A stretch of 33,852 bases of DNA. It comes from Opitutaceae bacterium (GTDB lineage: Bacteria; Verrucomicrobiota; Verrucomicrobiia; Opitutales; Opitutaceae). Under the pieces are notes generated by a model. That model was not told the DNA's origin. It was given only the letters and a program-made list of their open reading frames with translations, and ran no database searches. Shown piece after piece: positions 5,786 to 24,755 of the stretch. The stretch covers positions 1 through 33,852 of the forward strand of contig SXZN01000178.1 of assembly GCA_005787865.1 (NCBI GenBank). Direction: 5' to 3'. Both the position numbers and the translations under genes were made by a program. Numbering within the stretch: the stretch's first letter is position 1; the number at the start of each line of letters is the position of its first letter.

Positions 5786-5886
5786 GATGGACGCTATGAC
5801 TGAAAGACCGATGCGATAAAAAATCCAGCCCGCGTTTCTGATTTCTTTCAGGCTTCACCGTTTTAGCCGGGCAGGCTTTTAAAAAA

Positions 5887-5985
5887 GTGGCTAGGCAATC
5901 CACGGCACTGGGAGGACGTCGTCACCGTTGCTGCCTTCCGGCCCTGGCGGGGTTCACGCGCCTACTCATGTATGGCGCCTAGCCA
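5887..5985 (-). ncRNA. ffs: Signal recognition particle RNA (4.5S, small bacterial SRP)
   Basis: Minus strand has the helix-8 motif GAACCCCGCCAGGGCCGGAAGGCAGCAA, terminal pairing TGGCTAGGC/GCCTAGCCA and a U-tract. It lies in the usual position upstream of dnaX and is preceded by TTGTCA-N16-TACGTT. Confidence 0.93.
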
Positions 5986-9916: not shown

Positions 9917-9973
9917 CCCAGCACTGGGCGGCTCCCTCGCGCACCCGCTTAGCACGAGCACTCTTAGCTTTAC

Positions 9974-9999
9974 ATATCATCAAATACAGATGTATTGAT
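9974..9999. promoter_or_regulatory. Palindromic operator candidate upstream of metF
   Basis: ATATC-N10-GATGT (9974-9993) overlaps ATCA-A-ATACA-GA-TGTAT-TGAT, immediately after a TTTACA -35-like hexamer and before the ATG. Confidence 0.5.
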
Positions 10000-10004
10000 A
10001 TTTA

Positions 10005-21604: not shown

Positions 21605-22369
21605 TTAGGCCAACGTGGCGACGATCGCGTCCCACAAACGAATGCGGGCCTCAATCGAGGCGAGGGCCGCGCGCCCCGCCTCCTGCCATTTCAGCTCATC
21701 GTCGCCGCAAAGCCGCTCCACCATCCGTAAAGCGATCGCACCGTGATGACCACCATCGACCTCGATGTGCCGCTCTAAATAATAACGAAATGTATCAAAT
21801 TTTCCCGGATGCTCGCGGCTTAACCGCGTGACGAGTTGCATGAACATATCCGGAATTAGATCTTCTCGCCCAAAGGTGAAAGCGGCCGCTACTTCATGCG
21901 TTTTACCCTGACCGGCCAGCCGAAAGGTTTCCGCAGAAAATTCCGCCGCACCTAAGGGAACTCCCGCCTTCTTGAGTGCCACCGCCGTCGCTCCACCAGC
22001 GCGCACGCTGGCGAGGGCCCCGTTGATTGCCGTGGCGCCCGCCCCGGCTTCATGCATCGCGCGCAGATACAGCTCAAAATGGCTTATGCGCGTCCCCGCA
22101 GGATCGACGTCTGACTCTTCCCCGCACACAATTTCATTGATCAGGAATCGCACCTCTGCCTCACCCACCGGAACCCAAGGAAGATCGAGGCAGGTCAGGT
22201 CGCGCTGGAGCCGCTTGAGGAGCGACATGAAATCCCAAACCGCAAAAACGTGGGATTCCATGAAGCGCTGCACATCATCGAGCGAAGCCATCCGCGCATA
22301 AAGCGAATGAGCGAGCAAACGAGCGCGGGCTGGGGCGATTTGGGCACGAATATCATCAAGACGATGCAT
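21605..22369 (-). CDS. DUF3050 family protein (heme-oxygenase-like helical fold)
   Basis: HVFAVWDFMSLLK, INEIVCGEESD, SHFELY, FTFGREDLIP and YYLERHIEVDGGHH motifs. Confidence 0.88.
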   Translation of the reverse strand: MHRLDDIRAQIAPARARLLAHSLYARMASLDDVQRFMESHVFAVWDFMSLLKRLQRDLTCLDLPWVPVGEAEVRFLINEIVCGEESDVDPAGTRISHFELYLRAMHEAGAGATAINGALASVRAGGATAVALKKAGVPLGAAEFSAETFRLAGQGKTHEVAAAFTFGREDLIPDMFMQLVTRLSREHPGKFDTFRYYLERHIEVDGGHHGAIALRMVERLCGDDELKWQEAGRAALASIEARIRLWDAIVATLA

Positions 22370-22610
22370 CGCCTCAGCTTAGCCAACTCCCCTAAAACGC
22401 AAATCAGAGAGACTTTGCAGCGTGAAAACATTTCAGCCGCATAATATTCTTTCCGCGTTGCACCAATAAAACGCCTTGAGCAAAAAATTATTTTCCGGTC
22501 CTAGCTGACGTAACTATAAATAATGCAACAACTTGCTGATGGGGATGTATTTTTTCGGCGGTGATAAAAAAATTTATCTGGTCTTCCGGTCGCCGGTTTG
22601 CACTCTTCGC

Positions 22611-22741
22611 CTCGCATCAGGAAAGGATCGACTGACAACAGTCGGTTCTGCCAACCGGGTCTAGGAGTGATCACGGTGGTTTCGCGTGACGCAAGTCACC
22701 CGGATGTGAGAGGGGTCACACCTTCTAACAAAAAAACTCCT
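22611..22741 (+). ncRNA. SAM-I/IV-type riboswitch aptamer
   Basis: P1 CTCGCATC(22611-18)/GATGTGAG(22703-10); AUC-AGGAAAG junction; P2 hairpin 22625-48; P3 CCAACC/GGTGG with unpaired AA/U core; P4 GTGAC-GCAA-GTCAC; P5 hairpin after P1; pseudoknot between L3 AGGAGT(22663-68) and ACTCCT(22736-41). Confidence 0.85.
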
Positions 22742-22753
22742 CCTCAAAAAACG

Positions 22754-22791
22754 GAAAGCCGCCTGATGCTCTCAGGCGGCTTTCGTTTTTT
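22754..22791 (+). terminator. Intrinsic terminator of the riboswitch expression platform
   Basis: 13-bp stem GAAAGCCGCCTGA-tgctc-TCAGGCGGCTTTC followed by GTTTTTT, upstream of the CDS at 22845. Confidence 0.92.
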
Positions 22792-22844
22792 AGGAAACAC
22801 CCTGGTGCGCGAACGATTAGTTAAAACTCAACCGCTCACGCATC

Positions 22845-23096
22845 ATGTCCAACGTCATCACCCTCGCCGCCCTTCGCATCAGCGAAGCGAATCCCAACCA
22901 CCACCTCTGGAACAACAACGGAACGTGGTTCTTGCATTATACGGTCTACCCGACCCCTTTCACAAAAGAGCGCATCCGCCGCTCCTTAGGCACCAAGTGT
23001 CTCACGACCGCCCGTGAGCGCCGTGATCAGTTTTTTAATCACTTGGCCAAGCAGAGCACCACGCCGACTCTCGCCGGTCAGGTCGCTGTTGCCTGA
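22845..23096 (+). CDS. 83-aa hypothetical protein, riboswitch-controlled, resembling integrase arm-type/DUF6538 nucleic-acid-binding domains
   Basis: HLWNNNGTWFLHY...RIRRSLGTK...ARERRD pattern suggests three beta-strands plus a helix; the protein is basic. Confidence 0.75.
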   Translation: MSNVITLAALRISEANPNHHLWNNNGTWFLHYTVYPTPFTKERIRRSLGTKCLTTARERRDQFFNHLAKQSTTPTLAGQVAVA

Positions 23097-23315: not shown

Positions 23316-24755
23316 CTACCCCAAGGTGAACACTCTACACGGAAGCAAGGCTGCATCGACCATCCCGTGAATAATTTTTTTGTCGGGCGGGCAAAAAGTT
23401 GCCAGAGCCCCCGATAAGCGAGCCTGCCCTCGAACTACGAAATAGTAAGGACACAAGCGGAGCCGACCGGCCTTCGCTACAGCGGCCGGGCTCGGCCGAT
23501 TTTCTTCGTAGAGCAAGTGCTCGAGCCGTCGCGGCTTTTTGTATTCTTGGAGCAGATGCAAATTGCGCGGGGCCAACTCGAGCGCCTGCGCCACTCCGGC
23601 TTGCCACTCTTCGCGCGAACAATCACTGCCCAGCACTACACTGCGCGCGCCCCACGCCGTTTCATGAAAACCAGATATCTTGATAATTAAATCCCGCTCT
23701 TTCTGCGAGGCCCCACTGAGCTCGCGCCAGTCATTGAGCAGACGTCCACCGACCCGCGGGCCATCCAGAACCGCTCCGGGCGGAAGCACCGCGGGATCCA
23801 TCACCCAAGAGGCGGGGATAATCTTCCGCAGCAACTCGAGATGCGGCCGGCTGATATTTTCTGCCCAAAATTCCGGCAAGAGATGATGATGAAATAAAGC
23901 CAAAGCCAATTTCTCCTCCTGAAAAGGCCGCATCGGGGGCGAAATCGTCACCGCCCCACTCTGCCAAGCTTCTAAAATATCGGTGGCAATCCGCACATTC
24001 GCCCAATCAAAGAGTTCAAAAAAACGATAAATAATATCAATTTTCTCCGGCGTGCCCTCGACCGAAAAAAATAATTCCCCGCCGAGCGGGAAAACATCCT
24101 CGGGGCGCAGACAATAAACTCGCCGACCCAGGCGCTGCAATTGCTCGGCCAACCACCGCATCTCGGGACGGTAAGTCGCCGCTTCCTCACTCACGAGAAT
24201 GACGATGAGCGGGTTTCTCGACTCAGGCCGCAACGTCGCCAGGGCTTGGTAGAAATTTTCCACCATGCGATCACCCGCACCGAGGATCGTCTCACCACCA
24301 ATGTCCGGCGGCGCCATCGATTCCCCTGGGCTATACAGCCGATTTAAGAATGCCGTCAGCCCAACGCCCCCAGGGACGGAATCCAATTCCGTGAGTACAA
24401 AGCCGTCGTCCGTCAATAAAAGGTCAGGGCGGAGCACCGTCGGGAAAGCTCCCCGATTTTTAGGGTCACGCGCATGCTCCACCAAATTAGCCGGCTTACC
24501 GCGATCCAAGTAATCAGCCACCCACGGCGCTAATAATGATTTGTTGCGCAGCAAATTTTTTCCAGCCACCGAGCGGAGATAAAGAATCTCCAGCGCTTGA
24601 TGAAATTCTAAACACGCCGCCCCAATCTGCTCCAACTGGGTAATCTGCTCTGGTGTCAAGGGCCAGGCTTCCGGGGACAACTGCCAGGTCTTATTCTCAA
24701 ACAGCGACTGGCCATCGAAGGCGGCGCGGAGTGTCTGGTAGGACAAGGCGGACAT
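23316..24755 (-). CDS. Glutathionylspermidine-synthase-like / circularly permuted ATP-grasp amidoligase
   Basis: RPDLLL...ELDSVPGG (RxD/ExD-N metal-ATP motifs), IIYRFFE, EEK, IIK, WGARSV and LLQEY. Confidence 0.65.
   Translation of the reverse strand: MSALSYQTLRAAFDGQSLFENKTWQLSPEAWPLTPEQITQLEQIGAACLEFHQALEILYLRSVAGKNLLRNKSLLAPWVADYLDRGKPANLVEHARDPKNRGAFPTVLRPDLLLTDDGFVLTELDSVPGGVGLTAFLNRLYSPGESMAPPDIGGETILGAGDRMVENFYQALATLRPESRNPLIVILVSEEAATYRPEMRWLAEQLQRLGRRVYCLRPEDVFPLGGELFFSVEGTPEKIDIIYRFFELFDWANVRIATDILEAWQSGAVTISPPMRPFQEEKLALALFHHHLLPEFWAENISRPHLELLRKIIPASWVMDPAVLPPGAVLDGPRVGGRLLNDWRELSGASQKERDLIIKISGFHETAWGARSVVLGSDCSREEWQAGVAQALELAPRNLHLLQEYKKPRRLEHLLYEENRPSPAAVAKAGRLRLCPYYFVVRGQARLSGALATFCPPDKKIIHGMVDAALLPCRVFTLG

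Follow-up and report, generated by a model that had tools for sequence, protein, structure and literature searches.

Riboswitches of the SAM clan normally control enzymes and transporters directly, and the integrase-type domain, a sheet plus a helix, acts as a sequence-specific transcription factor in the AP2/ERF proteins of plants and apicomplexans. The SAM-I/IV class was described by Weinberg et al. 2010 (PMC2864571), and its architecture is given in PMC6890682; the RNA reported here shares with this class the stems P1 to P5, an undivided P2 without PK-1, P4, an L3/3'-tail pseudoknot and the SAM pocket. It differs from known SAM-I/IV riboswitches in that its score lies under the Rfam cut-off, in that it controls a putative regulator rather than an enzyme or transporter, and in that the predicted antiterminator is formed by the P1 5' strand plus J1/2, with a second anti-P1 word covering the start codon. 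The layout is like that of DseA in Desulfovibrio vulgaris, where (bioRxiv 10.1101/803072) a SAM-I riboswitch with a terminator precedes the lone gene for a small hypothetical protein, DVU1170 (189 nt), the RNA acts in trans on sahR, and SahR controls SAM-cycle genes. The likeness is one of layout: the riboswitch is SAM-I there and SAM-I/IV here, and in Desulfovibrio a function in trans is ascribed to the RNA and none to DVU1170. Protein regulators tied to SAM metabolism are also found in SahR and SamR, ArsR-methyltransferase repressors that are their own ligand sensors and recognize palindromes (Leyn et al. 2014, PMC4239095). The small protein described below is without a ligand domain and appears to form a separate layer.

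The window, that is, the whole stretch of 33,852 nt analysed here, carries a SAM-I/IV riboswitch ahead of a gene for a basic protein of 83 amino acids. The sensor is already known; what is new is an undescribed regulator family. A literature search, with most subscription papers outside its reach, returned no paper on the protein family, its candidate site or its sigma fusion, and none on DUF6538. As judged from sequence comparison, the protein is, with a probability of roughly 0.6, a transcription factor that binds TATGACA, is made when SAM is low and adjusts amino-acid, peptide and nitrogen genes.

Organization of the locus

The 83-aa ORF (pI 10.5) lies at 22845..23096 on the forward strand and is predicted to encode a three-strand sheet plus a helix, of an integrase arm-type, DUF6538-related kind. 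A sigma-70-type promoter (CTGGTC - 17 nt - CACTCT) is predicted at 22578..22606 (+) from a spacing conserved in related loci, which would put the transcription start about 1 nt ahead of P1; it is absent from the output of a consensus promoter scan. Metatranscriptome RNA contigs from four studies begin at 22653-22694, which cannot mark the true start, and run across the terminator into the ORF; such contigs show presence only, no start, end, strand or level being readable from them, and their uncovered parts prove nothing. The downstream gene (23316-24755) is convergent and encodes a 479-aa ORF with no Pfam or NCBIfam match, whereas the upstream neighbour (21605-22369, reverse strand) is divergent and belongs to DUF3050, which is heme-oxygenase-like. 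A small SRP RNA is encoded at 5886-5984 on the reverse strand. Every part of the layout given in the sequence-only reading (P1-P5, pseudoknot, terminator, small ORF and convergent next gene) was found; its description of the ORF as lone is right for the window and wrong for some other loci, since metK lies downstream in 4/54 distant matches.

A SAM-I/IV aptamer in the leader

The aptamer extends over 22614..22741 of the forward strand. In an E-value scan, the Rfam SAM-I/IV model (RF01725) matched 22609-22742 over its full length with 36.0 bits (E = 3.5e-4); this is less than the gathering score of the family, 41.1, and a whole-window gathering scan therefore misses the RNA. None of 20 close loci passed the RF01725 cut-off in a gathering scan (0/20), whereas two distant homologous leaders, L120 (43.7 bits) and L121 (44.9 bits), exceeded it (2/20 loci scanned). 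A riboswitch family search across the organism's own genome (G000) gave no match, missing even the known copy in the window. The 196-nt leader folds with z = -7.6, and 0/200 shuffles were equally stable. Its stems are P1 (22614-22618/22703-22707), an uninterrupted P2 of 11 continuous bp (22624-22649), P3 (22650-22680), P4 (22686-22699) and P5 (22709-22726), and the pseudoknot joins AGGAGT in L3 (22663-22668) to ACTCCT in the tail (22736-22741). P2 is without an internal loop or kink-turn, as the definition of SAM-I/IV requires.

The close relatives of the locus are from Opitutaceae, and the aptamer was found in 76 of the 76 genome loci with enough upstream DNA (the other four of 80 are truncated). 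Among more distant homologues, 33 matches with upstream DNA showed no aptamer by pattern, although one of them (L142) has one by eye; the association of riboswitch and homologue that was looked for on the strength of the sequence-only reading is supported, though the riboswitch does not accompany every homologue. In 28 aligned leaders, 92.8% of the cells were paired, against 31-41% in slid controls, and 14/27 pairs had changed on both sides, which was matched by 0/500 shuffles. Covariation was seen in P2, P3 and P5; P1 is nearly invariant and thus uninformative, and P4, present by folding and sequence, stands outside this count. The partners of the pseudoknot change in concert (AGGAGU/ACUCCU, GGGAGCG/CGCUCCC and GGAGAGU/ACUCUCC): for 24 types from 114 loci, the loop-tail helices averaged 5.9 bp for cognate and 4.2 for non-cognate combinations, and helices of at least 5 bp were formed by 79% of cognate and 32% of non-cognate pairs.

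The SAM-pocket nucleotides U7, G11, A45, U57, G58 and U88 (SAM-I numbering; positions from the PMC2864571 supplement) are invariant in the 28-row alignment, and 110/115 aptamers have the canonical core and pocket pattern, one of the misses (L061) being an artefact of the pattern. At four loci (L108, L122, L124 and L144) the riboswitch and the ORF are followed by a metK of the same orientation, either immediately or with one ORF in between (4/54 distant matches, with 107/145 neighbouring ORFs scanned), and this offers a separate pointer to SAM as the ligand. The metK of the L108 unit (genome G264) is a second, divergent one besides the ordinary copy, and was possibly acquired. From the full-model match, the covarying stems and the pseudoknot, we regard it as nearly certain that the RNA is a real SAM-I/IV riboswitch, so that the class first assigned by eye is upheld in spite of the score of the window copy.

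Terminator and predicted start-codon hairpin

The strong terminator noted ahead of the ORF was confirmed at 22754..22791 (+), with a 13-bp stem (22754-22784) and a U-run. The sequence of its 5' arm and loop, CCUGAUGC (22762-22769), forms the complement of the P1 5' strand plus J1/2, and in folds of transcripts ending at 22771 or 22775, 22614-22621 pairs with 22762-22769; this evidence for alternative pairing is drawn from unconstrained folds only. An antiterminator-type helix of at least 7 bp is present in 109/115 of the loci that have the aptamer, compared with 3.6% of shuffles, and compensatory changes in it occur in L108 and L144. A second anti-P1 word (22801-22812) can pair with UCACGCAUCA, just ahead of and into the start codon, in a predicted hairpin of -14.8 kcal/mol (22801..22847, +). 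Two anti-P1 helices exist in 78/115 loci and in 0.1% of shuffles, and the second one is likely to constitute a translational layer.

Thus the riboswitch very probably turns the gene off with SAM. When SAM is bound, P1 and J1/2 would be locked, the terminator would form and the gene would be off; when SAM is low, the P1 5' strand would capture the 5' arm of the terminator and RNA polymerase would read through, while translation may be regulated in addition by the hairpin over the start codon.

The protein family and its relation to integrase arm domains

A homologue search for the 83-aa protein gave 1268 matches among 1271 candidates, and the family is recognized in 943 clusters at 50% identity and in 72/401 sampled genomes of the phylum Verrucomicrobiota. 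The best 150 cluster representatives are all 65-159 aa long, and 28 columns are invariant across 47 homologues. AlphaFold2 predicts strands at residues 21-24, 27-35 and 42-47 and a helix at 53-72 (pLDDT 86-94 over residues 21-70). DUF6538 matches 81/84 family members weakly (E<=0.05), and the window protein itself reaches 20.6 bits, below the Pfam curated cut-off of 27. HHalign gave 83% (E 8.8e-6) to the N-terminus of a tyrosine recombinase, and the nearest Pfam-bearing Atlas clusters are the arm-binding families PF09003, PF14657, PF02920 and PF26003, at 0.90-0.91. Structure searches with two models returned integrase matches that were weak and not significant (Foldseek E about 0.1-1, VIA Z 3.5-4.4): the top-ranked structure was 3rmp (E 1.0), and lambda Int (2wcc; Z 4.4, rmsd 4.8, 56 aligned) was tied with unrelated folds. 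AP2 entries were among these weak rows, although the AP2/ERF factors are eukaryotic and no significant sequence match between them and the small protein was found; RNA-binding domains, too, are weakly matched by the three-strand-plus-helix shape. A PDB sequence search with the protein gave designed repeat proteins only.

In short, these comparisons, weak but consistent, relate the family to the N-terminal (arm-type) domains of integrases, as had been suspected from the first look at the sequence. Like the arm domains (DUF6538, PF20172; PF09003, PF13356 and PF14657; PF02920 of Tn916), the family has a basic sheet plus helix, the pattern R-x-R-x-S-L-x-T..A-R, weak profile matches and a candidate site that is short and non-palindromic. 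Unlike them, it is stand-alone, lacks a catalytic domain (an earlier statement that agrees with the lengths given above), lies below the Pfam cut-off, carries an NHHLWNNNGTW motif peculiar to the family and is under riboswitch control, and one of its subfamilies is fused to sigma factors. A whole tyrosine integrase is ruled out by the length of 83 aa, and none of 27 longer matches has an integrase Pfam domain.

Several divergent branches were seen besides. Members of family f11 (30/31 genomes; L111-L117 and L126-L128) have changed strand residues and neither the aptamer nor TATGACA; many of them follow a gene that by eye looks like that of ribosomal L28, and G186 has two tandem copies. The homologues L129, L148 and L149, one of them beside an AAA_22 gene, are embedded in strings of uncharacterised genes that may be phage-like, and these strings are a possible link to a mobile origin of the domain. 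The paralogues L132 and L150 have a different conserved leader, which closes with a terminator and is not SAM-I/IV, with TGTCATA upstream.

Of the 27 longer matches, 17 are sigma-70 factors (15 of full length and two partial) that carry the domain C-terminally, behind region 4. The full-length fusions have regions 2, 3 and 4 followed by the domain, and are 28-89% identical to each other. The position behind region 4 ties the domain to promoter recognition. In this subfamily (P0278-P0296; L652 2501-3736) the strand-2/3 residues of the domain are changed, and one cluster member is named Verrucomicrobiales. The sigma fusions, together with the candidate operator described below, support the role of transcription factor that had been proposed for the protein, its binding being putative.

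TATGACA at the promoters of the family

The strict 7-mer TATGACA, in either orientation, was found upstream of the gene itself at 19/22 distant loci that have the aptamer and 8/32 that lack it, at 21/93 close loci, and in 0/141 downstream controls. The other 72 of the 93 close loci have no such word at this promoter, and there is none at all in the 33,852 nt of the window, its own promoter included. A separate metagenome set (71 distinct homologues from 80 loci, at least one of which duplicates a genome locus) had it upstream in 39/47 cases with the aptamer and 8/20 without, against 1/53 in controls. The sigma-fusion gene of L652 likewise has the word upstream, 27 nt ahead of a TTGACA. Sites in forward orientation are concentrated at 52 and 61 nt ahead of P1, whereas reversed sites end 13-15 nt before TTG in 28/30 cases, a spacing suggestive of the geometry of an activator site. 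The candidate operator thus tracks the gene at the promoters of the family, absent though it is from that of the window, and is putatively assigned to the protein.

Use of the word as a -35 box was rejected (5/65 sites, against a background of 7%), and so was the view of it as half of a palindrome: the word is non-palindromic, no second half-site was found, and the TnrA/GlnR-type spacing occurred in 0/60. From this single non-palindromic site, the sheet would read the major groove as a monomer. Because the site directly precedes -35 at the gene's own promoter and in the metK units, the protein most likely activates there, and self-activation would give a positive feedback that is cut off by SAM.

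Genome-wide distribution of the word

In 15 Opitutaceae that carry the gene, TTATGACA was intergenic in 68/114 sites, against 37/160 in 14 non-carriers, where all sites were sampled for some genomes and the first 3-30 for others, and two of the carrier sites are the gene's own promoters. The last batch of genomes alone gave 18/30 and 6/20, respectively. Control words of the same composition showed the opposite order, being intergenic in 48/312 (15%) sites of carriers and 293/1092 (27%) of non-carriers, and in G000 TATGACA ranked 2/418 among same-letter words by intergenic share (16/35). Presence of the gene changes at least four times on a tree of MetK and MetF (28/30 genomes with both markers), and its absence from non-carriers was upheld by a broader profile. 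Related genomes and loci in these counts are not independent. The intergenic result also depends on a custom codon-based gene caller, the third one used, with matches at start codons set apart; a first, cruder classifier by ORF length gave no difference (26/59 vs 18/52), and a second caller was dropped because it assigned too much non-carrier DNA to intergenic regions (49/59 vs 23/52). Raw counts of the word separate carriers weakly (p 0.015 within the family, 0.25 outside it). Enrichment was absent from the carriers G264 (3/15), G156 (0/3), G192 (2/10) and G210 (4/15) and weak in G330 (4/15), and among non-carriers G303 had 3/5 intergenic sites and G159, with 59 copies, 9/30.

Genes for amino acids, peptides or ammonium lie beside 23/60 carrier sites and 2/23 non-carrier sites, in a count that leaves out most sites without a called neighbour and in which gene names are read from Pfam domains. 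Those beside carrier sites include metH, a cysK-like gene, a Cys/Met PLP enzyme, ilvB/N/D, gltB, gdhA, putA, ald, amtB, POT/OPT transporters and peptidases, and the neighbours in G000 include gltB, asd, an aminotransferase, prs and putA. Conservation of any single target is poor (gltB 5/14 vs 0/7, putA 4/14 vs 0/4, a comparison that is partly circular), and the genome-wide sites have no fixed spacing to -35. From those near start codons the protein may activate or repress. A global role in amino-acid and nitrogen metabolism with activator geometry is conceivable, at somewhat less than even odds. The gltB gene of many Opitutaceae (L455-L483) has a shared terminator-like leader hairpin, possibly an attenuator.

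Core SAM-cycle genes

A SahR/SamR-like palindrome, ATCA-N16-TGAT, was found before metF of the window at 9973..10002 (score 39.9). The 24-bp palindrome also stands before metK and metH of G000 (C195 and C121), is conserved across Opitutaceae (L151-L208) and resembles the 24-bp SamR motif (Leyn et al. 2014, PMC4239095). It is present at 30/30 metK promoters, 16/16 in genomes with the small protein and 14/14 in those without, and at 22/28 metF promoters (12/14 with, 10/14 without). Since it occurs with or without the small protein, the core SAM genes are not likely to be targets of the latter, and metK and metF were rejected as such; the suggestion that the protein acts at the metF promoter or on the core SAM cycle is thus abandoned, the more so as the window has no TATGACA. 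The core genes metK and metF would remain under a separate SahR/SamR-like repressor. ArsR-methyltransferase (SahR-like) genes were found in 4/4 other genomes examined, two with the small gene and two without, and Pfam confirmed two of them; none was found in G000, which is 80% complete. A weaker match to the palindrome (score 21) lies at 23658-23687, inside the convergent 479-aa ORF.

Alternative explanations

TATGACA might instead be the site of another global regulator of amino-acid and nitrogen metabolism, which co-occurs with the gene and controls it, while the SAM-controlled small protein binds something else, such as another DNA word or RNA polymerase. The neighbours amtB, gltB, gdhA, POT/OPT transporters and peptidases do look like a nitrogen regulon, some carriers show no enrichment, and the promoter in the window is without the word. 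We consider this explanation unlikely, though the most serious of those weighed here: the word stays upstream of this very gene in G192, G264 and G330, where genome-wide enrichment is lacking or slight, it also stands upstream of a sigma-fusion gene, and it has neither a palindromic half-site nor the TnrA/GlnR-type spacing. The protein might also be a partner of MetK, or a post-transcriptional RNA-binding protein at low SAM, rather than DNA-binding, in keeping with the same-strand metK neighbours of a few distant matches and the weak structural resemblance to RNA-binding domains. This is improbable, as the 27 longer matches include sigma-factor fusions but no MetK fusion, metK adjoins only 1/71 metagenome homologues, and the relatives by sequence are DNA-binding domains of integrases; a complex prediction of the domain with the MetK dimer of another organism (score 0.00) is no evidence either way.

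By analogy with DseA, which has the same layout (bioRxiv 10.1101/803072), the terminated riboswitch RNA could be the main product and target an mRNA, for example that of sahR, in trans, with the ORF secondary. The leader is very highly conserved, and SahR-like genes are present in all four other genomes examined; however, the protein is itself strongly conserved in its invariant columns, is retained where the riboswitch is missing and occurs in fusions with sigma factors, so that we give this idea little credit, compatible as an RNA acting in trans would be with a transcription factor. Least credible of all is that the aptamer is a variant for another ligand. The downstream gene is unusual, the Rfam score is below threshold, and spermidine-sensing SAM-I variants are a precedent (PMC10853860), but those variants alter J1/2 and the P3 loop, whereas the pocket positions are intact here, and at four loci this RNA also heads a unit with metK. 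We thus prefer the TATGACA-binding transcription factor. A wider form of this reading, in which an undescribed family of transcription factors was domesticated from an integrase arm domain, binds as a monomer at TATGACA beside -35, serves as a built-in upstream-element reader when fused to sigma-70 and acts in Opitutaceae as a riboswitch-gated global regulator that answers SAM shortage with a CodY/Lrp-like response in amino-acid and nitrogen metabolism, is put forward tentatively and may well prove too broad.

Implications

If the preferred reading is true, a riboswitch that gates a transcription factor without a ligand of its own would spread the signal of one RNA sensor over a regulon, and an abundant but little-studied phylum would gain a regulator with a predicted site. 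Bacteria, like eukaryotes, would then be seen to have turned integrase domains into transcription factors, and attention would be drawn to a subfamily of sigma-70 with an extra DNA-reading domain. In these freshwater and soil bacteria, SAM shortage would thereby be linked to amino-acid and nitrogen genes.
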